Shown one piece after another: positions 379 through 61,170 of a stretch of DNA of 64,000 bases. Where the stretch lies: assembly GCA_004296885.1 (NCBI GenBank), contig SCVN01000018.1, forward strand, positions 2,980 to 66,979. The letters are read 5' to 3'. Source of the stretch: Nitrospirota bacterium. Its GTDB lineage: Bacteria > Nitrospirota > Nitrospiria > Nitrospirales > Nitrospiraceae. How positions within the stretch are numbered: position 1 is the stretch's first letter; every line of letters begins with the position of its first letter. The notes beneath the pieces were generated by a model, which ran no database searches, was not told where the DNA came from, and was given only the letters and a program-made list of their open reading frames with translations. A program made the position numbers and the translations under genes.

Positions 379-394
379 TGGTGCCGCTCTTGCA
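379..394 (+). promoter_or_regulatory. sigma-54-type -24/-12 promoter candidate
   Basis: TGGTGC-CGCTC-TTGCA against consensus TGGCAC-N5-TTGCW. GG and GC are 12 nt apart. Lies 54 nt upstream of the ATG at 448. Inverted repeat GTTGCAGCC (262-270) / GGCTGCAAC (300-308) lies upstream. Confidence 0.45.
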
Positions 395-447
395 GCAAGA
401 CTGGACGCAGGACGACCGAACAGGGTCGGCGTCCCGCGGGGAGAACG

Positions 448-1170
448 ATGGCCCGTCACACATGCATCACCACCGGATGCGAGACTTGCGAGTTACGGTC
501 CGAGTCCGTCATCTGCAATCTGCCGGCGGTCGGCCTCGCTTCGCTGGAGCAGATCACGCACCGGTTTCACTACGGGCCGAGGGAGACCATCTTCTACGAA
601 GGCCATGCTTGCCTCGGCCTCTACCTGCTGTCGGCCGGCAAGGTCAAGCTGACCCGCTCCTCGGTGCGCGGCCAACGGCACATCGTGCGCATTCTGACGG
701 CAGGCCAACTGCTCGAAACACACGCGTTCCAGGAGGACGCGACTCATCTGGCGACCTGCGAGACGCTGGAAACGTCGCAAATCTGCCTCATCGAACGCGA
801 CGGCTACTTGGCGCTTGTCCGGCATGACCCTCAGCTCGCGGTCAACCTGATCCAGCTCCTCAGCGGCGAGCTGGGGCGGCAGCGGGACGAAGTGGACTCG
901 TTTACGTTCAAGAGCGCCAGGGAGCGGTTGGCGGCCTTGCTCCTCGAGTTGAGTCATCGGTTCGGGCATGAGACCGGCACGACCGTGGAGCTTCGACTGC
1001 CCCTCAAACGAGAAGAAATGGCCGAGCTGCTCGGCGTGACCGTGGAAACCGCCATCCGCCTGTTGAGCGCGTTTCGCATCGAGGGGCTCGTGCGCCTGAA
1101 CGGCCGGATCATCACGCTCCTGAACCGGGACCGACTGGCGAGAATCGCGCGGCACCCCGACATTGCGTAG
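448..1170 (+). CDS. Crp/Fnr-family transcriptional regulator with an N-terminal Cys cluster (FNR-like)
   Basis: 240-aa ORF with a cNMP-binding-type beta-roll (FYEGHACLGLYLLSAGKVKL) and a C-terminal HTH (REEMAELLGVTVETAIRLLSAF). N-terminus carries C6-X4-C11-X2-C14-X8-C23. Confidence 0.9.
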   Translation: MARHTCITTGCETCELRSESVICNLPAVGLASLEQITHRFHYGPRETIFYEGHACLGLYLLSAGKVKLTRSSVRGQRHIVRILTAGQLLETHAFQEDATHLATCETLETSQICLIERDGYLALVRHDPQLAVNLIQLLSGELGRQRDEVDSFTFKSARERLAALLLELSHRFGHETGTTVELRLPLKREEMAELLGVTVETAIRLLSAFRIEGLVRLNGRIITLLNRDRLARIARHPDIA

Positions 1171-1212
1171 CCCAAAGATCAGGCCTGACGGATCGTTCAC
1201 AAAGTAAGAAAA

Positions 1213-2022
1213 ATGGTGTATGCTGGCAGCCTTTGCCCATCCTGGGTGAATCGGATGACCGCTTTGGAAGAGCTACAGAAAGACTACCCAGCCACGATCC
1301 GCATCGCCGGCATCAAGGTGCGGGGGCGCGGCGACGTCAAGAAGATGGGCGTCGGCGACGCCTTGCTGCGCGTGGGCGACCACGTGATCCTGGCGGTGGA
1401 CCGGGAGCCGACGTACGGCATCGTGCACACGGAGCCTGCGCCCATGCCGTTCATCCCGCCCATGCGGGTCATGCAATCCATCGTGCGCCCGGCCACGGAG
1501 GCCGATCGGGCTCAAATCTCGCGACACGAACGGATGGCCCAGGAAGGGATGAGCTTCTGCCGGGAGCGGGCCAAAGCGCTCGGGCTGGAATTAAAAATGG
1601 TGGAGGTCTACGCCTCGTTCATCAGGCGGGAGCTCACCTTCGTCTATACGTCCGAGGACCGCATCGATTTTCGCCAGCTGGTGCGCGAACTGGCCCGCCG
1701 GTTCGGCGGCCGGATCGAGATGCGGCACATCGGTTCGCGGGAGGAAGCCAAACTGATCGGCGGCGTGGACTCCTGCGGCCTGACCCTCTGTTGCTCCGCC
1801 TTCATGACGGACTTCCGACCCGTCAGCGTCAAGAAGGCCAGACACCATGGCCAGGATCTGAGCATGAATGAGAATCGACTCATCGGTATTTGCGGCCGTC
1901 TCAAGTGCTGCCTGATGTTCGAGGAAATGGAGACGCGGGCCGCGGCCTCCGGGCAGCCGTCTCGGCCGCCGCTGATCACCCCGACCAGACTGCCGAGCGT
2001 TCAGCCCTCAGCCAAGCACTGA
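1213..2022 (+). CDS. PSP1 domain protein (RicT/YaaT-like)
   Basis: PSP1 C-terminal domain signature VYASFIRRELTFVYTSEDRIDFRQLVRELARRFGGRIEMRHIG ... GICGRLKCCLMFE. The start could instead be ATG 1255. Confidence 0.85.
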   Translation: MVYAGSLCPSWVNRMTALEELQKDYPATIRIAGIKVRGRGDVKKMGVGDALLRVGDHVILAVDREPTYGIVHTEPAPMPFIPPMRVMQSIVRPATEADRAQISRHERMAQEGMSFCRERAKALGLELKMVEVYASFIRRELTFVYTSEDRIDFRQLVRELARRFGGRIEMRHIGSREEAKLIGGVDSCGLTLCCSAFMTDFRPVSVKKARHHGQDLSMNENRLIGICGRLKCCLMFEEMETRAAASGQPSRPPLITPTRLPSVQPSAKH

Positions 2023-2055
2023 CCGCTGAAAACTGATCGCTGAGAGCTTCCCGCC

Positions 2056-2529
2056 ATGCTTGTGCTCGTCTGGATTCACCTCCTGGCCGACGTCCTCTGG
2101 ATCGGGGGGATGTTGTTCCTCTCGCTCACGTTGGTCCCCGTGCTGCAGCAGAACACGTTTGCCTCCTCTCGCCGTCCCTTCTTCAAAGCCATCGCCCTGC
2201 GGTTTCGCCGGCTCGCCTGGCTGTGCATCCTGCTCTTGCTGGTCACCGGACCGCTGCTGCTCAGCCGGCACGTGGCCTTCCCTCTGGCCCCGACGACCTG
2301 GCCGCCAGTCGTGCAGGCCAAGCTGACGCTGGTATTCGTGCTGCTCCTGCTGACGGCGATTCACGACTTGGCGCTTGGCCCCCGCGTCGGCCGCATCCTC
2401 AGCGTTCCGGAGGAGAGCCGCTCCGACCGGGACCGCTGGCTCGTCGGCTCGTCCCGCTGGGTGCCGCGCCTATCGCTCCTCCTCGCGCTGGGAATCTTGT
2501 TTTGCGCCGTGATGCTCGCGCGACGATAA
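2056..2529 (+). CDS. Small integral membrane protein (4 predicted TM helices, CopD-like)
   Basis: 157-aa hydrophobic ORF (LWIGGMLFLSLTLVPVL ... LAWLCILLLLVTGPLLL). Family assignment is tentative. Confidence 0.6.
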   Translation: MLVLVWIHLLADVLWIGGMLFLSLTLVPVLQQNTFASSRRPFFKAIALRFRRLAWLCILLLLVTGPLLLSRHVAFPLAPTTWPPVVQAKLTLVFVLLLLTAIHDLALGPRVGRILSVPEESRSDRDRWLVGSSRWVPRLSLLLALGILFCAVMLARR

Positions 2530-2686: not shown

Positions 2687-2809
2687 TTCTGAGCATGACG
2701 TCGAGTGTGAATCTTTCCCGTCCGGGTCGCCGTGTTCCGGCATCACGGCGCCTTGCTCGGGTTCGGCAGGTGGCGGTTCCGCGAGCAGTTCGAATGGGAA
2801 GGCGCGGCC

Positions 2810-4612
2810 ATGAATAAGAAGCTCTCTTTTTCGATCTGGTACATCTTCCTCGCGATCTGGGCGGTGATCCTCGTGCACGATTTCATCCATACCCTGCAGA
2901 AGATCGAAGAATTGCCCTACAGTCAGTTCAAGACCCTGGTCGCGACCGGCAAAGTGGCGGAGGTCTCCGTGAGCGGCCAGATCCTGACCGGCAAACTCAA
3001 ACCGGAGGGGGAATCGAAAGAGCCGCGGTTGTTCAGGACGATCCGCGTCGAAGATCCGGACCTGGTCAAGGAACTCACCCAGCATGGCGTCACCTTCACC
3101 GGCGTCATCGAAACCACGTTCTGGCGCGATGTGCTCTCATGGGTCGTGCCGGTCGTCCTCTTTGTCGGCGTCTGGTTCTTCATCTTTCAGCGACTGGGCC
3201 AAGCTCAAGGCGGCTTCATGCGGGTGGGCCAGTCCAAAGCGAAGATCTACATGGAGAAAGACATCAAAGTGACCTTCGCCGACGTCGCCGGGGTGGATGA
3301 AGCCAAGGAAGAATTGCAGGAGGTGATCGAGTTCCTGAAGACCCCGGAGAAGTTCACCAAGCTGGGAGGGAAGATTCCGAAGGGTATTCTCTTGGTCGGC
3401 CCGCCGGGAACCGGGAAAACGCTGCTGGCGCGCGCCGTCGCCGGCGAAGCCGCCGTGCCGTTTTTCAGCATCAGCGGGTCCGAGTTTGTCGAGATGTTCG
3501 TCGGGGTCGGCGCGGCCCGCGTGCGCGATCTGTTCGAACAGGCCAAGCTCAAGGCGCCCTGCATCATCTTCATCGATGAACTCGACGCACTGGGCAAGGC
3601 CCGCGGGATGGGGCCCCTGGCTCATGAGGAGCGCGAGCAGACGCTCAATCAATTGCTGGTCGAGATGGACGGCTTCGATCCGCGCATCGGGGTGATCCTG
3701 ATGGCCGCGACCAACAGGCCGGAGATCCTCGATCCGGCGCTGCTGCGCGCGGGCCGTTTCGACCGACACGTGTTGGTCGATCGACCGGACAAAGTCGGCC
3801 GCCTGGCGATCCTGCGCGTGCATGCCAAGCAGGTGGCGCTGGCCAGCGATGCCGACCTCGAGACGGTCGCCGGCATGACCCCTGGGTTCTCCGGCGCAGA
3901 CCTCGCCAACATCGTCAACGAAGCGGCGCTGCTCGCGGTCCGCCGCGGGAAGGATCAGGTGGGGCTCTCGGAACTGCAGGAAGCGGTCGAACGGGTGATC
4001 GCCGGACTGGAAAAGAAAAATCGCGTCCTGAACAAGATGGAGAAGGAGCGCGTGGCCTACCACGAAACCGGCCACGCGTTGGTGGCGCTCTCGCTGCCGG
4101 GAGGCGATCAGGTGCAGAAAATTTCCATCATCCCGCGCGGCATTGCCGCGCTCGGGTACACGCTTCAACTCCCGACGGAAGACCGGTTTCTCATGACCCA
4201 GTCCGAGTTGGAGAACAAGATCGCCGTGTTGTTGGGCGGACGAATCGCGGAGGAATTGGTTTTCGGCGAGGCCTCGACGGGCGCGCAAAACGATCTCGTC
4301 AAGGCGACTGATATCGCCAAGAGCATGGTCAAGGCCTATGGGATGAGCGAGAAGCTGGGGACCATCACGTTGGAGCGAGAACGGCAGCCGCAGTTCGTTC
4401 AGATTCAGGCCCCCCAAGAGAAAGGCGATTACTCGGAAGAGACCGCCCGGGAGATCGATTGCGAAGTGCGGCGGATCATCGACGAACAGTACGAACGGGT
4501 GAAGCAGCTCGTGGGCGAGAAGAAAGCCGCCCTTCAAGAAGGCGCGACGCTCTTGCTGGAACGGGAGGTCATCACCGGGAGCGATCTGAAGACCATTATG
4601 GACAAGGCGTAA
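2810..4612 (+). CDS. ftsH: ATP-dependent zinc metalloprotease FtsH
   Basis: N-terminal TM segments, AAA+ Walker [22 protein letters not shown] region and zinc motif HETGHAL. The ORF track starts at 2732, but ATG 2810 ([17 protein letters not shown]) fits the usual FtsH N-terminus. Confidence 0.95.
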
Positions 4613-8218: not shown

Positions 8219-8372
8219 AAGCGAAGTAAAAGAGCCCCTGCGGACATGAAAGAGGTTTTCCAATCTCTTCCCGAGCGTCTGTCCCCACAGCGCCACCGTG
8301 ACACCTCTATGGAGAGCCGATCGCCGAGGGCCCTGTTCCGCTGTGGCGTCTCGCACTAGAGCGCCCTTGCCC

Positions 8373-8379
8373 CTGTAGC
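8373..8379 (+). promoter_or_regulatory. CTGTAGC upstream element
   Basis: Exact heptamer in intergenic DNA, centred 95 nt upstream of the GG of the promoter candidate at 8470. Confidence 0.4.
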
Positions 8380-8469
8380 ATTTCGCTCCACTGATCTCTC
8401 AGCCCTTCGCCATCCTCGCCAAACCCCTTGTTTCGATGGCACTGTTCCGCGATACACTGCCTCCATCCT

Positions 8470-8485
8470 TGGCATGTTCCTGGCA
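8470..8485 (+). promoter_or_regulatory. sigma-54-type -24/-12 promoter candidate
   Basis: TGGCAT-GTTCC-TGGCA with GG and GC 12 nt apart, 58 nt upstream of ATG 8543. Confidence 0.45.
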
Positions 8486-8542: not shown

Positions 8543-8902
8543 ATGAAGCCACTCTTTCTAACGATCATCATCGGGTCATCGCTGCTCTTCTGGGTGGAAA
8601 TACCGTTGGTATCGGCGGCACACGGGGATTCTGGACGGGGAAAACTCCTGTATGAACAGCATTGCGCCAGCTGCCACGGAGCCAGCGGTAAAGGGGAGGC
8701 TCCGGCCGGCACCGCATTCATTCCGCCCGCAGCCGACCTGACCAGCGTGAAGAGTCAACATAAATTGGACGCCGTGCTCGCGAACATGATCGAACATGGA
8801 AAACCGGGAACGGAGATGGCGGCCTGGAAGGGGCGCCTCGCCGGCGGGGAGATCAACGACATCGTAACTTATGTCAGAACCTTGGGAACGTCGGCGCCAT
8901 GA
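8543..8902 (+). CDS. Class I c-type cytochrome (monoheme, signal peptide)
   Basis: CASCHGASGKG heme motif, hydrophobic N-terminus and a distal Met region (GTEMAAW). Start chosen at MKPLFLTIIIG. Confidence 0.85.
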   Translation: MKPLFLTIIIGSSLLFWVEIPLVSAAHGDSGRGKLLYEQHCASCHGASGKGEAPAGTAFIPPAADLTSVKSQHKLDAVLANMIEHGKPGTEMAAWKGRLAGGEINDIVTYVRTLGTSAP

Positions 8903-9375
8903 ACGCCAGCCGATGGAGCCTCATCGCCATTCTGCTATGGGTCGTCGGTGTCGCGGTCCTGGCAGTTCTGTTCGTGAAGGGCGCGACGAAGCCGGGAGCG
9001 GACGGGCGGACCGAGATATCGTTAGCCCCTTCGGAACGCGACCTGGTGCTTGGAGAGATGCGCGATTTGCTCAAGGCCGTGCACCGGGTGGTCACCTGGG
9101 CCGGCGGGCCGAACCAAACGGCGGACCGTCAAGCCGTCGAGCAAGCGGCCCGGGCGGCAGGCATGGGCATGGCGGCCGACGTGAATCCTTCGCTCATGGC
9201 CAAGCTGCCGCTGGCGTTCAAGCAGATGGGCATGTCGGTGCACAAGGATTTCGACGGGATGGCCGACGCCATCGGACAAAAGGAACAGCCGCAACAGATT
9301 CTGCAACGCCTGTCGAGCATCACGGCCCGCTGCACGACCTGTCATGACCTGTATCGGTTGCCGGGAGGAAAATAG
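8899..9375 (+). CDS. Membrane-anchored cytochrome with C-terminal CXXCH (class II / cytochrome c-prime-like)
   Basis: N-terminal TM helix, helical body, and a single CTTCH motif 11 residues from the C-terminus. ATGA overlap with the preceding cytochrome gene. Confidence 0.7.
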   Translation: MNASRWSLIAILLWVVGVAVLAVLFVKGATKPGADGRTEISLAPSERDLVLGEMRDLLKAVHRVVTWAGGPNQTADRQAVEQAARAAGMGMAADVNPSLMAKLPLAFKQMGMSVHKDFDGMADAIGQKEQPQQILQRLSSITARCTTCHDLYRLPGGK

Positions 9376-10170: not shown

Positions 10171-10186
10171 TGGCGCGCACGATGCC
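10171..10186 (+). promoter_or_regulatory. sigma-54-type -24/-12 promoter candidate (weaker)
   Basis: TGGCGC-GCACG-ATGCC with correct GG/GC spacing, about 200 nt upstream of ATG 10390. Confidence 0.3.
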
Positions 10187-10389
10187 GGAACACTGCAGCC
10201 TGGTCGGGCTCGCGACGGATCGTCTTCGGGTAGATCGCAGATTTGCCCGGTTATGTGTTAATTTTGAAGCGATCCCTGTCGGCAGGCCGACCGGTGCCGC
10301 AACCGGACGAATCCTTTTTCAGAAGCCTGTCTCTCGTAGGGACAGAACCAGTGCCAAAATCCTTACCCACTCACCAATAGGAGGCTATA

Positions 10390-47815: not shown

Positions 47816-47831
47816 TGGCATTGCCCTTGCT
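47816..47831 (+). promoter_or_regulatory. sigma-54-type -24/-12 promoter candidate
   Basis: TGGCAT-TGCCC-TTGCT, a near-consensus match, 42 nt upstream of ATG 47873. Confidence 0.55.
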
Positions 47832-48331: not shown

Positions 48332-48360
48332 CGTACCGTACCCTCATCTGATGGGGGCCT

Positions 48361-49239: not shown

Positions 49240-49282
49240 GGCCCGCAGCGCACCAAGAACGGTCGGAAATGGGGGCTTCGTT

Positions 49283-50950
49283 ATGCGGATGATGCTGTGC
49301 CATCTCACCGGCAGCCTGCGGGGCCGAACACAGTCGTTCGATACCGATGCGATCCGCGTCGGCGTCGGGGAATCCTGTCACGTCGCGTTCGACCCGGCGA
49401 AAGACCCGACAGTCTGCCCGCTCCACGCAGAGATTGCGGTCGAAGCCCATGCCCCCCTGATCCGGGACCGAAGCGGGAAGAACGCGCTCCTCATCAACGG
49501 CCAGCGAAGCTTTGAGTCCGAACTGAAAGACGGAGACCTCCTGCAGTTCGGCGAAGGCGGCCCGCTGGTGCGGTTTCGCGTCACGGCCGACGAGGGGCAG
49601 GCGAGCAAACCCTGGCGGGCCATCGTCACCGACTCCCGCGACATCGTCGTGCGCATGCCCCATCCCCGCTACCTGTCCCCCCTCTACTTGGCGCGCCACC
49701 TGCTCGCCGATATCGGACGCTATGGGTCCCCGGCCGCGAAGTTGGCCGCTATCCTGGCCATCTTGACGCCGATCGTGATCATTTTCCTGTTGGGCATCGT
49801 CGCCTACCGCCAGCACCTCGCGGCCGACACCGCCCAGCGGCGGATCGCCGACCTCATCAGCCAGCTGGAAGCCGGACAGCTCACCCGCACGGAGATGAGC
49901 CGGCGAATCGAGCAGGAACGCCAGAGCCTGGCGGATCTCCGCCGGCAACAGGAGGAGTTGGCCGCCAGGTTGACCGCCTCGCTCCAAGAGCAGCAGGCGG
50001 CCCATCGGTCCCAGCAGGAGCTCCAGACGATCCGCCGCCAGTTGAGCACGCTCGAAAACCGGCAGCGGTTCGCCGAGGACCTCGTCGCGCGGTTCGGGGG
50101 CAGCGTCGGGTTGCTGCAAGGCGGCTACGGGTTCGTGGAGCAAGGGACCGGCCGGCCACTCCGCTACCAGGGCTTCGATCAAGACGGCCATCCCTTCGTG
50201 GATCGAGAGGGCAATCCCTTGGTGACGGTCGAAGGCGAGAGCCCTCCCATCGTCATCTTCTATGCCGGCAGCGGATTCCTGGTGGACAAGGCGGGGACGA
50301 TCCTGACGAACCGTCATCTCGTTCGGATGTGGGACCATTACGAACCGGCGCGGGAGATCATGGCGACGGGGTTCGAACCCCGCCTGGCCATGCTCCGCAT
50401 CTTCTTCCCCGACACGGGAGCAGCCTTTGCTCTCGACATGCTCGGCGTCTCCGACACCAGCGACGTGGCCGTCCTCCGGACCGACCGGGCGCCGACCGGG
50501 TTGGCCCCGCTTCGCTTGGCTCCCGCGGACGACGCTCCGCGCGTGGGGGAGCCGCTCGTGGCGCTGAGCTACCCGGGTACTTTCGACAGCCTGATGGGAC
50601 GACTGGCCAAGCCGGTGAGCGACGGGATTCTGGAGGAGGCGGGGGGCGACCCGGTCAAACTGGCCGATGCGCTCGCCAGGCGGAAACTGATCCGCCCCCT
50701 GGCCACGCAAGGGCATGTGTCCGACCTATCACCGGACACCCTCACCTTCGAAGCCGGCGCCGGCGGGGGCAGCAGCGGGGGCCCGGTCCTCGACCAAGCC
50801 GGCCGCGTGATCGCGATCAACCATGCGGCGATGCGCAAGGTCGGCGGGCTCAATGTGGGGCTGCGGACCAACCAGGCCAGAGCCTTGCTGGCGCAGTTGC
50901 GGATCGCGCTTGATCCGGACGCCGACGCAAAAGTCCGCCTGCCTCGCTGA
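49283..50950 (+). CDS. FHA domain - TM helix - coiled coil - trypsin-like serine protease fusion
   Basis: N-terminal FHA-like ~100 aa, TM helix LAAILAILTPIVIIFLLGIVAY, a Q/R/L-rich coiled coil, then a protease domain with H (TNRHLV), D (DVAVLR), S (GGGSSGGPV). Confidence 0.75.
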   Translation: MRMMLCHLTGSLRGRTQSFDTDAIRVGVGESCHVAFDPAKDPTVCPLHAEIAVEAHAPLIRDRSGKNALLINGQRSFESELKDGDLLQFGEGGPLVRFRVTADEGQASKPWRAIVTDSRDIVVRMPHPRYLSPLYLARHLLADIGRYGSPAAKLAAILAILTPIVIIFLLGIVAYRQHLAADTAQRRIADLISQLEAGQLTRTEMSRRIEQERQSLADLRRQQEELAARLTASLQEQQAAHRSQQELQTIRRQLSTLENRQRFAEDLVARFGGSVGLLQGGYGFVEQGTGRPLRYQGFDQDGHPFVDREGNPLVTVEGESPPIVIFYAGSGFLVDKAGTILTNRHLVRMWDHYEPAREIMATGFEPRLAMLRIFFPDTGAAFALDMLGVSDTSDVAVLRTDRAPTGLAPLRLAPADDAPRVGEPLVALSYPGTFDSLMGRLAKPVSDGILEEAGGDPVKLADALARRKLIRPLATQGHVSDLSPDTLTFEAGAGGGSSGGPVLDQAGRVIAINHAAMRKVGGLNVGLRTNQARALLAQLRIALDPDADAKVRLPR

Positions 50951-53250: not shown

Positions 53251-53266
53251 AGCAAGGTCGGTGCCG
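53251..53266 (-). promoter_or_regulatory. sigma-54-type -24/-12 promoter candidate
   Basis: The minus strand reads CGGCAC-CGACC-TTGCT, about 55 nt upstream of ATG 53197. Confidence 0.55.
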
Positions 53267-53354: not shown

Positions 53355-53448
53355 CCTACACCGGCTTCAGCCACGTGCAGATAACTTGTTGATGATCCTT
53401 GAGATTGGATTGAATGCAAGAACCTACACCGAGATGCATAAATGCATC
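53355..53448. promoter_or_regulatory. Candidate enhancer (UAS) region: two GGTGTAGG sites plus a 16-bp palindrome
   Basis: CCTACACC lies on the plus strand at 53355-62 and 53423-30 (GGTGTAGG on the minus strand). The palindrome GATGCATAAATGCATC is at 53433-48. The first site is 94 nt upstream of the promoter GG. Confidence 0.4.
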
Positions 53449-53463: not shown

Positions 53464-54873
53464 TTACAACTCTGTCGGCTCCGGCTCTGATGCCTGCGGC
53501 CGGCCATCCGCCGGCGCCGCCTTCGTATCTCCCGGATGCAGACCGTGCTTCCGCAGCAACTTGTAGAAGTCGGCTCGGTAGCGTCCGGCGATCTGCGCCG
53601 CGCGCGAGATATTGCCGCCCGAGGCCTGCAGGATCTCCTTGAGGTACCGTAGCTCGAATTCCCCTCTCGCCTCCGTCAGCGGTTTCAACCGGCCTTCGGA
53701 CGAGACGGGAACAGCGGGCAGCAGGTCCGCCGTGATCATGTTTTGCATGGCCATAATCACGGCCTTTTCCACCGCGTTCTCCAGCTCACGGACATTACCG
53801 GGCCATGGCTGCAGCATCAGCTGGTGCATCGCCTCCGGCAGGAATCCCCGCACGTCCTTGTTCGATCGTCCGGCGCTTTGACGGAGAAAATGCTGCGCCA
53901 GCGCGGGAATGTCATCCCGTCGCTCGCGGAGCGGAGGCACGGTGATCGGCACCACCTGGATGCGGTAAAAGAGATCCTCTCGGAACGTCCCCGCTTTCAC
54001 GGCCTGGGCCAAATCCCGATTGGTCGCCGTGATGATGCGGACATCCACTTTGGTGGGGTGCAGCCCCCCGACCTCCTGCACTTCCCGCTCCTGCAACGCC
54101 CGCAGGAGCTTCACCTGCACGGCCAGCGGCGTCTCGCCGATTTCATCGAGAAACAGCGTGCCCCGTTCGGCGCTCTGGAACAGCCCGCGCTTCGCATGCT
54201 GCGCGCCGGTGAAGGCGCCCTTCGCGTGCCCGAACAGTTCGCTCTCGATGAGGCTCTCTGGAATGGCCCCGCAGTTGATGGCGACGAAAGGGCCCTTGGC
54301 CCGCCGGCTGTTGCAATGGATGACGCGCGCGATGACTTCCTTGCCGGTGCCGGTCTCGCCGGAGAGCGAGATGGTCGCATCCGTGTCGGCGACGCGCGCG
54401 ACCTGTTGCAGCAACTCCTGCATGGACGGGCTCCGCGCGACCACGTTCTCGAGCCCGTAGAGCTCCTTGACCAGCAACTTGAGCCGCTGGATTTCCCGGC
54501 TCATCCGCCGCTGCGCCAGGGCTTTCTCGACGTGCACGGCAAATTCCTTGTCGTCGAACGGCTTTGTGAGGTAGCCGCACGCGCCTTTCTGCATGGCTTC
54601 CACGGCGTTGGGAATGCTTCCATGGGCGGTGAGGATCAACACCGGCAGCTCGGGGTGGAGCTGGCGCAGCTCCTCCATCAAGGCCAGCCCGTCCCGGCCG
54701 CCGAGGCGCAGGTCGGTAATGGCCAGATCGTAGACATCGCGGCGCGCTTCGGCGAGCGCCGTGTCCGCGTCGGTGCAGGCCGTAATGCCAAATCCCATCG
54801 CCGTCAGGCGGATCTTGAGCAGATGGAGCAAGCCTTCGTCGTCATCCACCAGCAATATGCGTTCGCCTTCCAT
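53464..54873 (-). CDS. Sigma-54-dependent response regulator (NtrC family: REC-AAA+-Fis HTH)
   Basis: REC (ILLVDDDEG...AITDLRL), AAA+ with GETGTGKEV and the GAFTGA loop (ESELFGHAKGAFTGA), and a C-terminal HTH (GNISRAAQIAGRYRADFYKLLRK). Confidence 0.92.
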   Translation of the reverse strand: MEGERILLVDDDEGLLHLLKIRLTAMGFGITACTDADTALAEARRDVYDLAITDLRLGGRDGLALMEELRQLHPELPVLILTAHGSIPNAVEAMQKGACGYLTKPFDDKEFAVHVEKALAQRRMSREIQRLKLLVKELYGLENVVARSPSMQELLQQVARVADTDATISLSGETGTGKEVIARVIHCNSRRAKGPFVAINCGAIPESLIESELFGHAKGAFTGAQHAKRGLFQSAERGTLFLDEIGETPLAVQVKLLRALQEREVQEVGGLHPTKVDVRIITATNRDLAQAVKAGTFREDLFYRIQVVPITVPPLRERRDDIPALAQHFLRQSAGRSNKDVRGFLPEAMHQLMLQPWPGNVRELENAVEKAVIMAMQNMITADLLPAVPVSSEGRLKPLTEARGEFELRYLKEILQASGGNISRAAQIAGRYRADFYKLLRKHGLHPGDTKAAPADGRPQASEPEPTEL

Positions 54874-54895
54874 CGTCGCGCCTTTCGTCTGCACG

Positions 54896-55519
54896 CTACG
54901 GCTGCGCGTCCTTCCCGGAAGCCGGAGGGATCCGTCCCGGGGCCGGTTTCGGCCTCCGCTTTTCTTTGTCCTTCATTTCCTGATCGATCCGTTTCAACGC
55001 GTCGAGTTGCCTGGTCAGCTCCTCGATCTGCTTGTCCCTGGCCTTGAGCCCTCGCTGCAATGTCCGGATCGCCGGCCCGTCCAATTCCTGCGACAGCTGC
55101 TGGATCGCCAGTTCCCGGTCGAGCACGTCCCGGACCAGCTGCTCGGTCATCCTCGCCAACGGCCCCGACCAGGCGCCGCCGGAGGGTTGCTCCTTGAGCA
55201 CGTGCAGCCAGACCCGGCTGGACGAGGCGAGGCGGCTGTCGGGGGAGGCGGCGACGACCTGCTGAAACTGCCGGACCGCTGCTTCCCGGTTTTCATAGAG
55301 CGCAACCAGCGCGCGAGTGAAATGGACCCGGTCACAGGTCTGGCGCTCGGCGCAGGTGCCGAGTTGGGTCTCGTGCGCCTGCACGAGACTCTGGTAGCGC
55401 GACAGGTCGGCGGCATCCGGCATGAAGAACGGCGAGGTCGGGCTGACCGCGGGCGCGCAGGCGCTGAGGCTCGCGAGCGCCAGCAGCGCTCCGCCGGCCC
55501 ATGTTCCCTTGCGCATCAT
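54896..55519 (-). CDS. Lipoprotein with a C-terminal coiled coil (unknown function)
   Basis: Lipobox LSAC. ATGA overlap with the kinase stop. C-terminal heptad-like KARDKQIEELTRQLDALKRIDQEMKDKEK. Confidence 0.6.
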   Translation of the reverse strand: MMRKGTWAGGALLALASLSACAPAVSPTSPFFMPDAADLSRYQSLVQAHETQLGTCAERQTCDRVHFTRALVALYENREAAVRQFQQVVAASPDSRLASSSRVWLHVLKEQPSGGAWSGPLARMTEQLVRDVLDRELAIQQLSQELDGPAIRTLQRGLKARDKQIEELTRQLDALKRIDQEMKDKEKRRPKPAPGRIPPASGKDAQP

Positions 55520-56988
55520 GCCATGTCTCCCGGCCGGCGGAGCGGCAACAGGAAGCAGGCGACCGTTCCCTTGCCGACCTCGCTCTCGATCCAGACCCGC
55601 CCCCCATGCGCCTCGATGACTTTCTTCGCCAGCGCCAATCCAAGTCCGCTCCCGGCCACCGCATGCTTTTCCTGCCGGCGGCCCTGGTAGAACCGTTCGA
55701 AGACGTGTGGCAAGTCTTCCGGCGGAATGCCCGGGCCTGCATCCGAGACGGAGAGACCTGCGTTGCCCATACGCTCGTCCGGTTCCACCCGAACCTGGAC
55801 CGTCGCCCCCTCCGGGCTGAACTTGAGGGCATTGGAGAGGAGGTTGTCCACCACCTGTTCGATCCGTGCGGCATCCATCGTCACCCACAGCCCGCCGGGC
55901 GGCGCGTCGACCAGGACCTGGATACGCCGGCCTTCCGCCAGCAGGCGGGTTTTCCGCACCGATTGTTCCACGGTCCGCGTCAGGTCGGCGCGCGCCAGCC
56001 GGTATTCCATCAATCCAGCTTCCATCTTCGAGAGATCCAACAGCGTCGAGATCAGATGCATCAACCGCTGGCTGCTGTCCCGCATGATTTGCAGCGTTTC
56101 TCGTTGCGCCCGGTCCAGGGGACCGGGGATTTCATCCAGCAACAGCTGCGTTCCTTCCCGAATGGACGCCAGGGGCGTGCGCAATTCGTGGGAGATGTGG
56201 GCCAGAAATTCGGCCTTCATCTCGTCCAGTTCCTGAAGTTTTGCGCCCATCCAATTGACCGTTTCGACCAGTTCGCGCAGGTCGCTGGGCACCTCGACGC
56301 TGACCGACCTTCCGAAGTGCCCCTGGCCGATGCGTCGGATGTGCTCCTGGATACGACGCAAGGGACGCAAAATGCTGAGGCTCGCGATCGCCGCGAACGC
56401 AAAGCCCAGCACGATGGCGGCCATCAGCAGCTTCCGCATCATGGCCTCGGCCCGAGCCGAACTGGCCCGGGCTTCATTGACCAGAGTGCCCACTCGATTC
56501 TCGTGAAGCGCAATATAGGCGTCGAGTTGGTCTGTCATGTGCGTCACGTGCTCGTCGCGCTGACGCTCGTCGTCGGCCGACGGCTGAGCAAAACGGAGCG
56601 GTTGGCCTTCGATCTTGTCTCGAAACTGCTGGCGGTAATCCTGGTGCAGCCGCAGCAGATTGTCCAAAAGACCTTGGCCCTCCGGTTCGGTTTCCTGTCG
56701 CCGGAGCGCCGTTGCCGTCCTGCGAAATTCATCCGCCTCCTCGCCCAAACTCTTCAAAAACACTTGGTCCCGCACAGCCAGATATTTCTTTTCACTGCGC
56801 AGTTGGGCATAGAGGCTTGTGATGAGGTGCTTGGCCGTTTCGATCGCCGGTTGGTGATAGGACACCAATTCGGTATTGAGTTTCGTGAGCTGGCGGAGCT
56901 GGAAGAGGGCATAGAGATTGACTCCTGCGACCACCAAAATGATCGCGAGAGAGCCCAAGGCCAGTCGCCAGAAGATTGAAAGACGCAT
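55516..56988 (-). CDS. Sensor histidine kinase (TM-periplasmic-TM-HAMP-HisKA-HATPase)
   Basis: H-box FLAHISHELRTPL, N-box LSNALKFSP and G-box GSGLGLALAKK. Start taken at MRLSIFWRL; an upstream ATG at 57075 is possible. Confidence 0.9.
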   Translation of the reverse strand: MRLSIFWRLALGSLAIILVVAGVNLYALFQLRQLTKLNTELVSYHQPAIETAKHLITSLYAQLRSEKKYLAVRDQVFLKSLGEEADEFRRTATALRRQETEPEGQGLLDNLLRLHQDYRQQFRDKIEGQPLRFAQPSADDERQRDEHVTHMTDQLDAYIALHENRVGTLVNEARASSARAEAMMRKLLMAAIVLGFAFAAIASLSILRPLRRIQEHIRRIGQGHFGRSVSVEVPSDLRELVETVNWMGAKLQELDEMKAEFLAHISHELRTPLASIREGTQLLLDEIPGPLDRAQRETLQIMRDSSQRLMHLISTLLDLSKMEAGLMEYRLARADLTRTVEQSVRKTRLLAEGRRIQVLVDAPPGGLWVTMDAARIEQVVDNLLSNALKFSPEGATVQVRVEPDERMGNAGLSVSDAGPGIPPEDLPHVFERFYQGRRQEKHAVAGSGLGLALAKKVIEAHGGRVWIESEVGKGTVACFLLPLRRPGDMA

Positions 56989-57039: not shown

Positions 57040-57127
57040 TTCATGCGCATGAAAATCCATACAACTGTAGGTCATTGTAAACTATGGATATGCCTATCCA
57101 TACATTGGCAATGGTGTAGGCATATCC
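57040..57127. promoter_or_regulatory. Nest of palindromes and direct repeats in the AT-richer divergent control region
   Basis: TTCATGCGCATGAA is a perfect 14-bp palindrome at 57040-53. ATCCATACA occurs at 57055 and 57096. TATGGATA-TGCC-TATCCATA is at 57083-57102. GGATATGCCTA / TAGGCATATCC are at 57086-96 and 57117-27. ACTGTAGG is at 57065-72 and GGTGTAGG at 57113-20. Confidence 0.5.
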
Positions 57128-57219: not shown

Positions 57220-57235
57220 CGGCATTCCCCTTGCT
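57220..57235 (+). promoter_or_regulatory. sigma-54-type -24/-12 promoter candidate
   Basis: CGGCAT-TCCCC-TTGCT, 120 nt upstream of ATG 57355 and divergent from the kinase/NtrC operon. Confidence 0.5.
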
Positions 57236-57354: not shown

Positions 57355-57762
57355 ATGAACAGGATCTTATTGAGCATCCTTTCGCTCCTGTTGCTCGTCG
57401 GAGTAGGCGTCATGACGGTCGCCGGCGAAACAGCCATCGCGTCTCAACCAACGGCCATCCGGGTCGATTTGCGGCTTGAGGTTGAGCCGTCCATGTTTCA
57501 GGGAACCGTGGAGGCCATCGACCTCTCCGATTCCAGCATGCTCATCAGGACGGACTACGGCCGTATGCTCCGTCTCTTCAGTATGAACTGTCAGGGGCTG
57601 CGCGGCCTGAATGAGGGCGACCGCGTGCGGCTCGAACCGGACCCGGAGGGGGCCCTGACCGTCACCACGATGGACCGGACCGTACCTCATCTGACACAGA
57701 GCCAGACCTTGCTGGACCAGGCGGCTTGGTCGCCGGGGCTCTGCGACGGGGAGACCCTGTGA
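57355..57762 (+). CDS. Hypothetical secreted protein
   Basis: Signal peptide MNRILLSILSLLLLVGVGVMTVAG. No family recognised. Confidence 0.6.
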   Translation: MNRILLSILSLLLLVGVGVMTVAGETAIASQPTAIRVDLRLEVEPSMFQGTVEAIDLSDSSMLIRTDYGRMLRLFSMNCQGLRGLNEGDRVRLEPDPEGALTVTTMDRTVPHLTQSQTLLDQAAWSPGLCDGETL

Positions 57763-57842
57763 ACCTCGAACAGCTGATTGTGATCGGTCTCTTGGGGTGG
57801 ATGGCGATGCACTGGCTGTTGTTCAGCCTGGACGTACCGTGA
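57759..57842 (+). CDS. Possible 27-aa hydrophobic peptide
   Basis: GTGA overlap with the previous stop. Sequence (V)NLEQLIVIGLLGWMAMHWLLFSLDVP forms a single TM-like helix. Confidence 0.25.
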   Translation: MNLEQLIVIGLLGWMAMHWLLFSLDVP

Positions 57843-57921
57843 TCGCTCGCGCAGGACCGGATGAACCGGCTCCGTCGTGAGACCGGTCGCCATCCTGTAC
57901 GACAAGATCAAGGAGGTTGTC

Positions 57922-58455
57922 ATGAAACACATTCTCTTCAATACGGGACGGCTGCTGCTCATGGGCATCATTATGGTCCTGGGCTCTGCGCAGCTCGGCT
58001 TGGCGCAAACCGAGGGGCCTCCGGCCCGCGAATGGTCGGGCGGCGCAGCCATCGGTTTTTTGGGCAACACGCCGGACGGGACCGCCTTTGCCCTCAATAT
58101 GCACGGAGATCGATTCCTGACCCGAAGCTTTTCGATCGGGCCGTTGATGCAATTGGGCGTGACGGGAGACATGACCCAGGTCGGGCTGTCCGGTCAGGGG
58201 AAGTATTGGATCGACATTCCGGACACGTCCGACAAACTGAAGCTGGTCTTGCAAGGCGGGTTGGGCTTCGCGCATGCGGATCTGCGCGGGTCCGACACCT
58301 CCTGGTTGATCCCGCTCGGGGTCGGACTCGACTACAAAGTGGACGAACGAATGGCGCTGACCTCGACATTCCTCCTCAATTTCACCGATCTCCAGCCGAG
58401 TCCGGGAACCCATACCACCGTGATGCCCGGGCTCACCGTCGGAGTGCGATTCTAG
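57922..58455 (+). CDS. Small outer-membrane beta-barrel protein
   Basis: Signal peptide ...LGLAQ, alternating strands and C-terminal GLTVGVRF. RBS AAGGAGG. Confidence 0.7.
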   Translation: MKHILFNTGRLLLMGIIMVLGSAQLGLAQTEGPPAREWSGGAAIGFLGNTPDGTAFALNMHGDRFLTRSFSIGPLMQLGVTGDMTQVGLSGQGKYWIDIPDTSDKLKLVLQGGLGFAHADLRGSDTSWLIPLGVGLDYKVDERMALTSTFLLNFTDLQPSPGTHTTVMPGLTVGVRF

Positions 58456-58546
58456 GCCCAGCGCAACGATCCTGCCTGTTGCCTTCTGGTTGCCCGGGCA
58501 AGAGCGTGACGACAGCCGCAGGATCGCCGGAAAGGAGGGACAGGAG

Positions 58547-58840
58547 ATGAAACCGGTATGCCTCGTGCTCGTGGTGGCATTGATCGGCTCCATGGCCGGC
58601 TGCGCAGGGATGACGGATGAGCAGCAGCGATTGCTTTCCGGCGGCGGCATTGGGACGGCCGGAGGCGTGGCGCTCGCCGCGGTCACAGGAGGGAGCCTGC
58701 TGATCGGAGCCGTCGTAGGGGGCGCCGCTGGTGTCGCAGGAGGTACGCTGGTGAACGAGCAAGAAAAGAAGAAATCCGCGAAAACTGCAACAGGGAAAAA
58801 GACCCGTGCGGTGCAGAGACAAGAAACGAAGGCGGATTAG
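58547..58840 (+). CDS. Glycine-zipper lipoprotein
   Basis: Lipobox MAGC, a GGGIGTAGGVALAAVTGGSLLIGAVVGGAAGVAGG segment and a Lys-rich tail. Confidence 0.7.
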   Translation: MKPVCLVLVVALIGSMAGCAGMTDEQQRLLSGGGIGTAGGVALAAVTGGSLLIGAVVGGAAGVAGGTLVNEQEKKKSAKTATGKKTRAVQRQETKAD

Positions 58841-58945
58841 CGCCCGACGAATCGTGACCGTCCCCACGGCACCGTGCAAACCGCCGCGGGATTGCCTCGA
58901 GGGATTCCGACCCATGGCCAATCAACAAGGAGCAGGAGGAGCATC

Positions 58946-59503
58946 ATGATGACGACGAAAGAGTTTGTTCGCGCCGTTTTCGGTGGATTCGCCCTTGTCC
59001 TCGTGGCGGTCCCCCTCCTTTGGGCCCAAGCTGATCAGGATGAAGGGCGCCTGCAAGCCGCCAACGTGGCCATCGACAAAGACGCCGCATCCAAAGGATC
59101 GGCCGTTCAGGCGCAGACTCTGTCCAAACAGTTCAACGTCCCATCGAGCCAAATTGAAAGCATGCGCGCCCAAAAGCAAGGGTGGGGTGAAATCACCATT
59201 CAGCTCGCCATGGCGCAACATCTGACCCAGACTGCCCCCCAGACCTATCCCTCCATGAACGAGGCGCTGGCGAAGATTGAGACGCTGCGAAACGAACACA
59301 TGGGCTGGGGCAAGATTGCGAAGGACCTCGGCTTCAAGTTGGGACCTGTGGTCCGCGACGCCGAACAGGCACGGCAAGATCTGGCAAAAGACCTCCGTGC
59401 GGCAAGGACGGAGCAGGCGACCAGACAAGAACGGACGGAACGACCCGATCGTCCCGTGAGGCCGGAGCGACCGGAACGGCCCGAACGGGCCGCCCACAGG
59501 TAG
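58946..59503 (+). CDS. Hypothetical secreted protein with a C-terminal (E/D)RP repeat tail
   Basis: Signal peptide ...LLWAQA and tail ERTERPDRPVRPERPERPERAAHR. RBS GGAGGAG. Confidence 0.6.
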   Translation: MMTTKEFVRAVFGGFALVLVAVPLLWAQADQDEGRLQAANVAIDKDAASKGSAVQAQTLSKQFNVPSSQIESMRAQKQGWGEITIQLAMAQHLTQTAPQTYPSMNEALAKIETLRNEHMGWGKIAKDLGFKLGPVVRDAEQARQDLAKDLRAARTEQATRQERTERPDRPVRPERPERPERAAHR

Positions 59504-59597
59504 CCAGGCCCGCATTATCTCCCCGATCCAGCGAGGGGAAGGGGGGAGGGCCAGGAATTGTCGGATGGTGGCTTCCGGCCCCTCCCGGCGGGCATGC

Positions 59598-59930
59598 ATG
59601 AAGGGAATCCCCATGGCGGCGCGTTCTCTGCGGCGGGTGAGTATGCTGGGGGCCATGCTCTTCGGTGTGGCCGCGTGTACGCCCTGGGAAGTCACGTATC
59701 TGGAGAACGCGGTCAACCAAGCCAGCCAGGAGGAGGTGGCCGAGCGTTTCGGCTCTCCGCACAGCACGACCGGGTCGAACGCGAGCGAGTCCGAATGGAT
59801 CTACCGATATCGCGGGAGCCCCATCGGCCCCATGGGCGGTTTCGATACCGGCGACGATTCTTGCCGTGAGTATGTGTTGACCTTTGATCAACAGGGCACA
59901 TTGCGCAATTGGAAACGGCAGCAATGCTAA
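59598..59930 (+). CDS. Small lipoprotein (BamE/SmpA-OmlA-like fold suspected)
   Basis: Lipobox GVAAC. Pattern QEEVAERFGSPHS...EWIYRY...YVLTFDQQGTLRNW. Confidence 0.5.
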   Translation: MKGIPMAARSLRRVSMLGAMLFGVAACTPWEVTYLENAVNQASQEEVAERFGSPHSTTGSNASESEWIYRYRGSPIGPMGGFDTGDDSCREYVLTFDQQGTLRNWKRQQC

Positions 59931-59984
59931 ATACGTGCAAGAGGGCCGACCTCCTGTTTTCTGTTCGGCGGTGGAGAGCGAATC

Positions 59985-60875
59985 ATGGGGACTTCCGCAA
60001 ACAGGAAGAATGCAGCGGTCAGGCGTACGATCGCTTTCAGCGGACTTCTCAAAATCCTGCTCACGATCCTCGCGGTCTGCTGGGGTGTCTTCCCTCAATC
60101 CGGTGAGGCATCCGAAGACAATTGGCAGATAGGGCTCTCGGCGTACCATTCATCGGGAACCTACGGCACCGGCTCGCGGACCACCATTACCTCGATTCCG
60201 CTCTCCATACGCCGTTTGTTCGATGATGGTGACATCACGCTCATCATCCCCTACCTGTCGGTCACAGGCGACTGCAACGTGACGTTGCTCAGCGGCGTGC
60301 CGAACCAAACGGGCGGGACTTGTCCGACAAGAACCGTGGTCCGTAACGGACGCAATGTGCAGACGCAAACGCTGAACACCCGCACGACCGAGACCGGCAT
60401 CGGAGACACGCTACTCCAGGGCCGATACTACGTTCTGGATGAACAAGGGCTGCTGCCCACCGTCGCACTCACGGCTCGAGTCAAGTTCCCCACGGCCGAT
60501 GCAAGTCGGGGGCTGGGGACGGGTGAATTTGACGAGAAATTCGGCGTTCAGCTGTCCAAGAATCTCACGGCCCGATGGGTGAGTTTCGCCGACGTCGGCT
60601 ACACCTTTGTCGGTTCTCCACCGGGGGTCGCGCTCAGGAACCAATGGAATTACGATATTGGGCTCGGCTACGCCTTGACGCCCAACCTGCTCGGCAGTGT
60701 CTACTACGAATATTGGACCGCCGTGGTTTCCGGGCTGCAGGACCCCCAAGACCTTTACTTTGACCTGAGTTATAAGGTGAGCCAGATGTTTCGGCTCAAT
60801 GCGGGGCTTCTGGTAGGACTTTCGGACGGCGCACCCGATTATGGCGTGACGGGGGGCATTGCCGTCAGATTCTAG
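59985..60875 (+). CDS. Outer-membrane beta-barrel protein (MetA-pathway/transporter-family-like)
   Basis: Signal peptide, GIGDTLLQGRYY, PTVALTARVKFPTAD..GLGTGEFD and C-terminal GGIAVRF. Confidence 0.6.
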   Translation: MGTSANRKNAAVRRTIAFSGLLKILLTILAVCWGVFPQSGEASEDNWQIGLSAYHSSGTYGTGSRTTITSIPLSIRRLFDDGDITLIIPYLSVTGDCNVTLLSGVPNQTGGTCPTRTVVRNGRNVQTQTLNTRTTETGIGDTLLQGRYYVLDEQGLLPTVALTARVKFPTADASRGLGTGEFDEKFGVQLSKNLTARWVSFADVGYTFVGSPPGVALRNQWNYDIGLGYALTPNLLGSVYYEYWTAVVSGLQDPQDLYFDLSYKVSQMFRLNAGLLVGLSDGAPDYGVTGGIAVRF

Positions 60876-61154
60876 ATTCTATGCGCGGCTACATCGGTGT
60901 TCCCTAACAGTCATTGCTGAACTTGCACAAATTAACCATCTCAGGGATTCGTGGATAGGGATCAATGCAGACCGGATCCGGCAGAGGCCAGAAACCGTTC
61001 CTTGCGAAGCCAAATTCTGGTCCGACCGGCCGTACGAGGCCCCCACGGCTTCTCATATTTCGCCGGCCGGCTGCCGTGGAATCCCGTAGCATGGCCTGGA
61101 AACAAGCAGCCAGATCAATAGGTTGCGCCTATCAATCCGCATGGCATCTGCTCT

Positions 61155-61170
61155 CGGCACTGGACTTGCT
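61155..61170 (+). promoter_or_regulatory. sigma-54-type -24/-12 promoter candidate
   Basis: CGGCAC-TGGAC-TTGCT, 26 nt upstream of ATG 61196, implying a short leader. Confidence 0.45.

Follow-up and report, generated by a model that had tools for sequence, protein, structure and literature searches.

The window analysed here, a 64-kb stretch of a Nitrospiraceae genome (G000:C12:2980-66979), is quite probably a hot spot of promoters recognised by the sigma factor RpoN (sigma-54), as judged from its sequence. Nine promoters listed in an earlier sequence-only reading and two unlisted ones, at 43060 on the minus strand and at 12626, would be of this kind. A first group is characterised by a shared composite enhancer, and a second group would be served by a regulator encoded in the window itself. 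Activation of sigma-54 promoters by an enhancer-binding protein (EBP) is well known as a type of mechanism; what is new is the regulon, the phased composite enhancer and their concentration in one Nitrospiraceae region.

The sequence-only reading had placed sigma-54 promoters in front of most operons of the window, and had concluded that a block of redox, stress and envelope genes depends on RpoN and EBPs. "Most" was too much: the 11 supported promoters (nine listed, 43060(-) and 12626), with three more possible, account for only a third to half of the roughly 25-32 transcription units. For comparison, the average over the genome is a few per cent, far below this share. The conclusion about the block keeps its ground as to the unusual promoter density and the presence of the machinery, and the RpoN dependence itself is a prediction from sequence.

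Sigma-54 machinery and promoter matches in the genome

The genome (3.26 Mb, 62% G+C, 23 contigs) had 3073 genes when called with a codon-usage model, with 89% of the DNA coding. By its gene content it carries the machinery for sigma-54 transcription, namely rpoN and EBPs. A genome-wide search found a single intact copy of rpoN (Sigma54_DBD match, E = 5e-59) at its usual position in the order lptB-rpoN-hpf. The product of 499 aa has the region I motif LSQKLIMTPQLQQAIKLLQL and the RpoN box ARRTVAKYR. EBPs are encoded by about 22 genes, with 21 strong and one partial Sigma54_activat matches. They include a REC-AAA+-HTH_8 protein inside the window (53464-54894), two GAF-GAF-AAA+-HTH_8 proteins of the NifA/FhlA type (C23:16866-18920 and C3:29280-31322) and one protein without sensory domain (C13:38123-39358).

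Promoter matches were scored with two matrices. The seed matrix was based on the compilation of Barrios et al. and is therefore independent of this genome, and the genome-specific matrix was cross-validated two-fold, with the contig being scored always left out of training. At 12 bits or more the seed matrix gave 0.166 matches/kb in intergenic sense DNA, compared with 0.012-0.017/kb in coding DNA (either strand) and 0.049/kb in other intergenic DNA. The cross-validated matrix at 14 bits or more gave 39 intergenic-sense matches (0.118/kb), compared with 0.005-0.008/kb and 0.018/kb, respectively. In dinucleotide-preserving shuffles of the upstream regions 14.5 +/- 3.3 matches were obtained at 12 bits or more and 4.1 +/- 2.0 at 14 bits, while 57 and 34 were observed. 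The sequence-only reading had proposed that a similar density in coding or antisense DNA would speak against it; matches were instead 6-30 times denser in intergenic sense DNA than in coding or antisense DNA, and 4-8 times more frequent than in the shuffles.

The top matches gave the genome-specific consensus TGGCAY-N5-TTGCTY. From the class densities, the false-discovery rate was 2-16% above 14 bits, 27-46% at 12-14 bits and 41-58% at 8-12 bits. Sigma-54-type promoters number roughly 45-110 genome-wide, which is a few per cent of operons.

The window contained 4-5 non-coding matches of at least 14 bits, with 1.06 expected, and the densest 64-kb stretch of the genome was C12:36000-100000 with eight such sites. 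Strong sites lie just beyond the window at C12:67055, 89026, 94531 and 98214, and another cluster is located at C20:18-50 kb. The core TGGC-N7-TTGC occurred six times in the whole window, against 3.08 +/- 1.66 in shuffles, of which 9 in 100 reached six; this count is not significant alone. Three of the six copies fall in the 7.5 kb of intergenic DNA of the window, where 0.36 were expected (P = 0.006), and the chance argument that had been built on this core thus holds.

Probable promoters of the window

All twelve listed sequences are present as they had been written, with the two minus-strand sites at 31662-31677 and 53251-53266. Each has the fixed spacing GG-N10-GC, which is also found at the unlisted sites 43060(-) and 12626. 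With the start codons corrected, all twelve fall between genes. Orthologue alignments and ribosome-binding sites moved the starts of the pyruvate:ferredoxin oxidoreductase (POR) operon to ATG 18370, of the bPH gene to ATG 47873, of the cyclase to ATG 61196, of a small winged helix-turn-helix (wHTH) gene to ATG 31610 and of the cytochrome gene to ATG 8543, replacing 8474.

The gene labels given earlier proved essentially correct when the window proteins were assigned to Pfam families. The 5' part encodes a Crp/Fnr-type regulator, FtsH, c-type cytochromes, DUF1264 and a POR gamma/delta-alpha-beta operon. Hsp20, SulP with a cNMP-binding domain, an AMP-binding enzyme and a bPH_2 protein with two trypsin-like proteins follow in the middle, and bactofilin, a kinase with an NtrC-type regulator and a MASE1-PAS-GAF-GGDEF cyclase in the 3' part. 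The closest named relatives of the FtsH are from Nitrospira sp. and Nitrospiraceae metagenome-assembled genomes (MAGs), with 85-87% identity.

On score alone five sites stand (15.4-19.3 bits), because the false-discovery rate is 2-16% above 14 bits compared with 41-58% at 8-12 bits. TGGCAT-CGTGT-TTGCT (18327-18342, +, 19.3) precedes the POR gamma/delta-alpha-beta and cytochrome operon, which runs from ATG 18370 to 22480. CGGCAC-CGACC-TTGCT (53251-53266, -, 19.2) precedes Zn-ribbon and bactofilin genes (53197 to 52474). TGGCAT-TGCCC-TTGCT (47816-47831, +, 16.7) lies before the bPH_2, trypsin-like and FHA-trypsin-like genes (ATG 47873 to 50950), and CGGCAT-TCCCC-TTGCT (57220-57235, +, 15.4) before a cluster of exported proteins (57355-60875). 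The fifth, CGGCAC-TGGAC-TTGCT (61155-61170, +, 15.4), lies 26 nt before ATG 61196 of the MASE1-PAS-GAF-GGDEF cyclase, which has the ribosome-binding site GAGGAG 8 nt before its start.

Four listed sites of lower score are supported by conservation and by an upstream element. They are TGGTGC-CGCTC-TTGCA (379-394, +; 3.1 cross-validated, 8.6 seed) before the crp/fnr-family gene 448-1170, TGGCTC-CCTCC-TTGCT (2671-2686, +; 11.7 and 13.3) before ftsH (2732-4612), TGGCAT-GTTCC-TGGCA with an unusual -12 box (8470-8485, +; 9.6 and 13.1) before the cytochrome c pair (8543-9375), and TGGCAT-CGGGC-ATGCA (31662-31677, -; 8.2 and 11.1) before the small wHTH gene, which heads the gene string with Hsp20.

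The sites 2671, 8470, 31677 and 32990 score 7-12 bits, where the false-discovery rate is 41-58% or worse, and the extended-consensus score of 379, 10171 and 43237 is not clearly above chance. Rejecting 379 and down-ranking 2671, 8470 and 31677 on score only was overturned by conservation and enhancer geometry; the genome-specific matrix had been trained on strong sites and sets too high a bar for members of this regulon. Of the twelve listed sites, nine are supported, 32990 is doubtful, and 10171 and 43237 are chance matches.

At least two probable promoters were not on the list. TGGTCT-GGCCT-TTGCA (43045-43060, -) lies before an AMP-binding, acetyl-CoA-synthetase-like gene (41255-43030), and GGGCAT-CATTC-TGGCA (12626-12641, +, score 13.5) is a candidate before the gene 12679-13083, which looks OsmC-like by eye.

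Conservation in related genomes

Orthologous upstream regions were taken from up to 30 related genomes or public contigs and inspected for -24 and -12 boxes. The boxes of 379, 18327, 31677, 47816 and 43060 are kept across genera, with drifting spacers or flanks, and those of 2671 and 8470 within the genus. At 379, TGG-N8-TTGCA is present in all six orthologous upstream regions (five other genomes, with G006 from another genus), and of the 11 invariant columns in the 260-nt alignment of the six regions, 8 belong to TGG and TTGCA. The site 18327 has -24/-12 elements before the POR orthologues of G012, G008 and G002. At 31677, TGGCAY-N5-(A/G)TGCA is found in G004, G012, G014 and G013 with four different spacers. 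The boxes of 47816 occur in G004, G023 (another family), G009 and G006, which represent four genera, so that five of seven orthologous regions have them when the window is counted; TGGCAT is changed to TGGTAT or TGGCAC there and the spacers are altered. For 43060, TGGTCY-N5-TTGCA is present in seven genomes of several genera (the window and six others) with varying spacers.

Within the genus, TGGCTC-N5-TTGCTT of 2671 is kept in G002 and in G004, with a different spacer in the latter. The site 8470 reads TGGCAT-GCTCC-TGGCA in G002, where the cytochrome has just 60% identity. In the congener G004 the promoter 53266 is identical although the surrounding spacer region is more diverged, 57220 is kept with one spacer change and 61155 is kept although the flanks diverge. 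These three could not be traced further because orthologues elsewhere are absent, in other contexts or without the site. In 11 other genomes the genes downstream of the EBP orthologues (69-78% identical) are different ones, and no site like 53266 is present. In G008 a 57355-like gene adjoins the orthologous EBP operon, and no sigma-54 site was found before that gene. The cyclase homologues found in other genera are apparently paralogues, and no convincing site lies upstream of them.

A shared composite element, probably an enhancer

Five promoters (2671, 8470, 18327, 31677 and 47816) have in common a composite element, which consists of a palindromic 17-mer TGT-N11-ACA and a following TGTAGC-type element. 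The distances of the two parts from the downstream TGG of the -24 box are 128-130 and 96-98 nt. Before ftsH (2541-2579, +) the 17-mer TGTGGTCTTCTGCTACA, 16 nt and TGTAGC stand 130 and 97 nt before TGG 2671. Before the cytochrome pair (8342-8390, +) TGTGGCGTCTCGCACTA, 15 nt and TGTAGCATTTCGCTCCA stand 128 and 96 nt before TGG 8470, and before POR (18199-18239, +) TGTCGCTTTCCGCCACA, 15 nt and TGTAGCAGG have the same two distances to TGG 18327. The bPH copy (47686-47726, +) is made of TGTAGTCTTTCGCTACA, 15 nt and TGTAGCAGG, 130 and 98 nt before TGG 47816; a 49-nt architecture is common to the upstream regions of POR and bPH. On the minus strand (31768-31807) TGTGGCGTGAGTCCACA (31791-31807), 17 nt and TGTCCT (31768-31773) lie 130 and 96 nt before the TGG of 31677.

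This geometry is kept in G002, G004, G023 and G006. The ftsH composite is found in G002 (129 nt) and G004 (132 nt), and the enhancer by itself also lies upstream of ftsH in a Nitrospira sp. MAG. The cytochrome composite is kept in G002 with a distance of 97 nt, the POR composite also occurs upstream of the G008 orthologue, and the bPH composite is kept before the G023 and G006 orthologues, 99-100 nt from their promoters. The block upstream of 31677 is kept in G004, G012, G014 and G013, and its proximal element is TGTAGC in G012.

The strict composite (TGT-N11-ACA, 13-18 nt, TGTAG) has five copies genome-wide. With up to two mismatches there are six loci, all intergenic, and four of them are in the window (2541, 8342, 18199 and 47686). 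Five of these loci have a -24/-12 site 96-98 nt past TGTAGC; the remaining one, on C20, has promoters on both strands, at distances of 112 and 131 nt. The 17-mer stands 128-131 nt before TGG at seven promoters (2671, 8470, 18327, 31677, 47816, C20:18267 and C23:2597), and the histogram of distances between 17-mer and promoter has a single peak at 128-131 nt. When the T of TGG is taken as about -26 relative to the predicted start, the centres of the two elements fall near -148 and -115, a separation of three helical turns. More generally, TGTAG or CTACA was found between -175 and -70 in 16 of 60 strong promoters of the genome, where about 8% were expected. A CTGTAGC element and GGTGTAGG sites noted earlier agree with the enhancer elements found here.

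Copies of the 17-mer with at most one mismatch, in either orientation, also precede 379, 43060 and 12626; the background of such copies is 0.017 per 80 nt of intergenic DNA. Upstream of 379 it is TGGTGCACTTCTCCACA (233-249, +), 146 nt before TGG, and it is kept 143-147 nt upstream in G002, G003 and G006 (as TGTAGCATGCTGCCACA in G006). Upstream of 43060 it is TGATGAATAATGCTACA (43153-43169, -) at 109 nt, kept at 98-110 nt in seven of seven genomes. The copy before 12626 is TGTGGCATCTTGCGCCA (12508-12524, +) at 118 nt, with one mismatch. Enhancer-type upstream elements were not found for 61155 and 10171, and only a weak 17-mer with two mismatches was found for 32990.

Outside the window the shared enhancer is found before a hemerythrin-like gene and before operons with universal stress protein genes in them or next to them; these labels were given by eye. 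The sharing of one enhancer by the window operons of the first group suggests a common switch. In the genome no EBP gene adjoins any copy of the enhancer, so the activator is not assignable from position; the two GAF-GAF-AAA+-HTH_8 proteins are candidates only.

Between the enhancer and the 47816 promoter, an inverted repeat CCTTGTTTTCCAAGG at 47772-47786 is kept in G004 and diverged in G023 and G006; it may be the site of a bending protein or of a second regulator. In the metagenome locus L261 (Ga0233424_10003154), the gene of a DUF1264 homologue with 81% identity has a perfect TGGCAC-CGCCT-TTGCTC, and TGTAGCAGG 119 nt upstream. The window copy of DUF1264 has neither such a promoter nor TGTAGCAGG, so regulon membership seems to shift between relatives.

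The second group and the local two-component system

The promoters 53266(-) and 57220(+), both with CGGCAY instead of TGGCAY, flank an operon on the minus strand (53464-56988) that encodes a histidine kinase (55516-56988), a 207-aa protein and an NtrC-type EBP response regulator (53464-54894). In Pfam terms the regulator has REC, Sigma54_activat and HTH_8, and the kinase has HAMP, HisKA and HATPase_c. TGTAGG repeats stand before 53266 at 53355-53360 and 53423-53428 (-94 and -162), and before 57220 at 57066-57071 and 57115-57120 (-154 and -105). Their positions are largely kept in G004, where two of the four copies read TGTAGT or TGTAGA. Judging from position only, activation of both promoters by the local two-component system is the simplest explanation. 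The cyclase promoter 61155 has the same CGGCAC form as 53266 and no recognisable enhancer.

Between the TGTAGG repeats before 57220 there is also a perfect palindrome, TATGGATA-TGCC-TATCCATA (57083-57102), nearly kept in G004.

Proposed regulation and other explanations

According to the proposed mechanism, sigma-54 holoenzyme would bind the -24 box (TGGCAY, or the weaker TGGYNY and CGGCAY) and the -12 box (TTGCT, TTGCA, ATGCA or TGGCA) and stay closed, until an AAA+ EBP bound about 100-150 nt upstream remodels it through ATP hydrolysis. In group 1 (2671, 8470, 18327, 31677 and 47816, and 379, 43060 and 12626 with variant spacing), one EBP would co-activate the promoters via the composite enhancer. 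Its targets would be the Crp/Fnr-type regulator, FtsH, the c-type cytochromes, the four-subunit-type POR, the Hsp20 string, the acetyl-CoA-synthetase-like enzyme and the PH-domain/protease trio, and perhaps also the OsmC-like gene 12679-13083. In group 2 (53266 and 57220), the window's own kinase and NtrC-type regulator would be in charge.

Several points weigh against this proposal. The 17-mer distance varies at 379 (146 nt), 43060 (109 nt) and 12626 (118 nt), no copy of the enhancer has an EBP gene beside it, and 53266, 57220 and 61155 are conserved in one congener only, G004. Some supported promoters have non-consensus boxes (-24 TGGTGC, TGGCTC and TGGTCT; -12 TGGCA and ATGCA). Such sites score where about half of the matches are chance, so their support comes from conservation and enhancer geometry. 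The sequence, enrichment, conservation and geometry were observed directly, while RpoN dependence, the identity of the activators and the signal are inferred from them. The low-oxygen interpretation given below is drawn by analogy with another species.

One could suppose that only 18327, 47816, 53266, 57220 and 61155 are real, and that 379, 2671, 8470, 31677 and 32990 are chance occurrences of GG-N10-GC in front of genes transcribed from sigma-70 promoters. The weak sites do lie at 3-12 bits, where at least 41-58% of intergenic matches are expected by chance, and their boxes deviate from TGGCAY-N5-TTGCTY. However, TGG and TTGCA, ATGCA or TGGCA are kept at exact positions in orthologous regions where spacers and flanks change, and the distances of the composite at 2671, 8470 and 31677 (128-130 and 96-98 nt) match those at the two strongest promoters. 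The chance of a match of at least 9.6 bits within a given 3-nt window is about 0.001. We therefore consider this restriction to five sites unlikely.

Equally improbable, in our estimate, is that the protein binding TGT-N11-ACA/TGTAGC is no EBP but a regulator such as the Crp/Fnr-family protein of gene 448-1170, acting with sigma-54 or independently of it. The TGT...ACA palindrome recalls CRP boxes (TGTGA-N6-TCACA), the gene of this protein (cNMP-binding, HTH_Crp_2) is in the window with the 17-mer in its own upstream region, and the missing EBP neighbour of the enhancer copies would fit as well. The half-sites are, however, one base wider than in a CRP box (17 bp compared with 16 bp). The fixed distance to -24/-12, with centres near -148 and -115, is the position of NtrC or NifA enhancers and not that of class I or II CRP sites; two sites about three helical turns apart have the layout that nucleates EBP oligomers, and TGTAG half-sites are over-represented before sigma-54 promoters genome-wide.

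That the whole pattern is chance is barely credible: GG-N10-GC with its four-base core is frequent in DNA of 62-64% G+C, a hand search always finds some, the TGGC-N7-TTGC count of the whole window is not significantly above shuffles and 10171 and 43237 are indeed at chance level, but the 6-30-fold and 4-8-fold enrichment already contradicts it, and so do the cross-genus conservation and the enhancer of fixed geometry common to the sites.

Comparison with known systems

Promoter glnAp2 of enteric bacteria depends on sigma-54 and has two strong NtrC sites, with centres near -140 and -108. The window promoters of sigma-54 type also have GG at -24 and GC at -12, and some 100-150 nt upstream there are two sites whose centres, near -148 and -115, are separated by about three helical turns; the window also encodes an NtrC-type response regulator of REC-AAA+-HTH_8 architecture. 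Unlike glnAp2, the site is TGT-N11-ACA/TGTAGC and not TGCACC-N5-GGTGCA, the targets are redox, stress and protease genes and not those of nitrogen assimilation, and the window system is known from sequence alone.

The NifA upstream activator sequence (UAS) is TGT-N10-ACA before nif promoters. The palindrome of the window is likewise TGT...ACA, about 100-150 nt upstream of the sigma-54 promoter, and the genome has two GAF-type EBPs. In contrast to the UAS it has an 11-nt spacer (17 bp) in every copy, not 10 nt (16 bp), a second element TGTAGC fixed 32-33 nt away, and no nif genes. A NifA-type regulon was rejected, as the element is TGT-N11-ACA in every copy. The window enhancer probably resembles the NifA UAS in its working and is not classed as one; that a GAF-type EBP binds it is no more than a guess.

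A NifA-like sigma-54 regulator is reported next to nxrAB in Nitrospira moscoviensis (PMC6606698), and in the literature searched, sigma-54-dependent regulators in Nitrospira were mentioned only next to nxr genes (PMC6606698). A cross-phylum paper of 2025 on sigma-54 regulons does not mention Nitrospira. The work on the sigma-54 regulome of Desulfovibrio vulgaris Hildenborough included experimental binding data (Kazakov et al. 2015, PMC4641369). This regulome is similar in being that of an EBP-rich non-enteric bacterium, with many operons outside nitrogen metabolism assigned to sigma-54 promoters and EBP-specific upstream motifs, and differs in phylum; the assignment in the window is purely computational and concerns a local promoter cluster.

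Possible role in the low-oxygen response

In Nitrospira marina, a four-subunit POR of the Pyrococcus/Thermotoga type and several universal stress proteins, in gene clusters, were among the proteins most increased at low O2 (Bayer et al., PMC8115632). That paper names no sigma-54 promoter or enhancer and gives a tentative regulatory role to UspA proteins (PMC8115632). The POR of the window is also of a non-five-subunit type (gamma/delta fusion, alpha, beta), and other promoters of the regulon adjoin universal stress protein genes. By this analogy it is plausible that group 1 is a low-oxygen or redox-stress regulon.

A further-reaching proposal, which we regard as possible and somewhat doubtful, is that a single EBP sensing O2 or redox state drives a Nitrospiraceae-wide sigma-54 regulon via the phased composite enhancer, with much of it in one genomic island, and that this would be the basis of the low-O2 response of N. 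marina. The regulon would then include the O2-sensitive four-subunit-type POR, Crp/Fnr, FtsH, Hsp20, universal stress proteins, acetyl-CoA synthetase and proteases. If so, the so far unnamed regulatory basis of the low-oxygen proteome response of N. marina would be given.

In soils, oceans and wastewater plants, nitrite oxidisers of the Nitrospira type have a key part in nitrification, and their adaptation to low oxygen is a standing physiological question. If the proposed regulation is true, it provides a concrete wiring diagram, with co-regulated operons, the kind of activator and the DNA sites, and a sequence signature with which any Nitrospiraceae genome or metagenome can be searched. As to annotation, several start codons are corrected, and promoter prediction on score only both over-calls and under-calls in this genome.

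Doubtful and rejected sites

Two sites at 32692-33005 are a doubtful divergent pair: TGGCAT-CCGGC-ATGCA (32692-32707, -, score 10.4) and TGGCAT-CCTCC-ATGCA (32990-33005, +, score 7.2), the latter before SulP. A weak 17-mer, TGCTGCGAAATGCCCCA (32850-32866), lies between them with two mismatches, for which the background is 0.18 per 80 nt. The site 32990 has no counterpart before the SulP orthologues of G026 and G029, and a different site is present in G008. The three TGGCATC-N4-CATGCA sites 31677, 32707 and 32990 shared no similarity that we could find beyond the motif. The open reading frame 32416-32715 (-), with TGGCAT-CCGGC-ATGCA (32692-32707) at its 5' end, looks like a gene remnant, because it matches only the last 78 of 229 positions of polyphosphate kinase 2 (PPK2).

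The site 10171 (TGGCGC-GCACG-ATGCC, 10171-10186, +), before DUF1264, was rejected: its score is low (-2.6 cross-validated, 3.7 seed), it is not kept in metagenome relatives even at 95-96% protein identity, and neither a 17-mer nor TGTAG lies upstream. Also rejected was 43237 (TGGCCG-GTTAC-CAGCA, 43237-43252, +), which scores -6.6 cross-validated and 3.1 seed and falls in a stretch missing from the congeners G002 and G004. GCGCAC-AGTTC-TTGCC (43305-43320, +), 37 nt before the 43357 operon, is conserved with an invariant spacer in G002, G004, G018 and G008. It resembles a -24/-12 promoter without the first G of GG, and so was not counted as a sigma-54 promoter; it could be the site of another factor. 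A conserved GTGGAnnnTCGCGnCA block (43185-43204) lies about 108 nt upstream of it.

Other observations

The small wHTH gene has a paralogue (36% identical) at C13:43477-43668, with a strong site TGGCAC-TGAAC-TTGCTC of 19.7 bits at C13:43333 and the sensor-less EBP nearby. The 13-mer TTTTGAAGCGATC has only two copies genome-wide, at 10262-10274 and 43321-43333, before the DUF1264 and 43357 operons and downstream of the rejected sites 10171 and 43237, respectively. It does not fit an FNR or CRP box and may be a shared site for some other regulator. Just upstream of DUF1264, at 10309-10346, GAATCCTTTTT...CTGTCTCTCGTAGGGACAGA includes an inverted repeat and is kept in the metagenome homologues L200, L201, L261 and L265, and it may be a leader structure or an operator.

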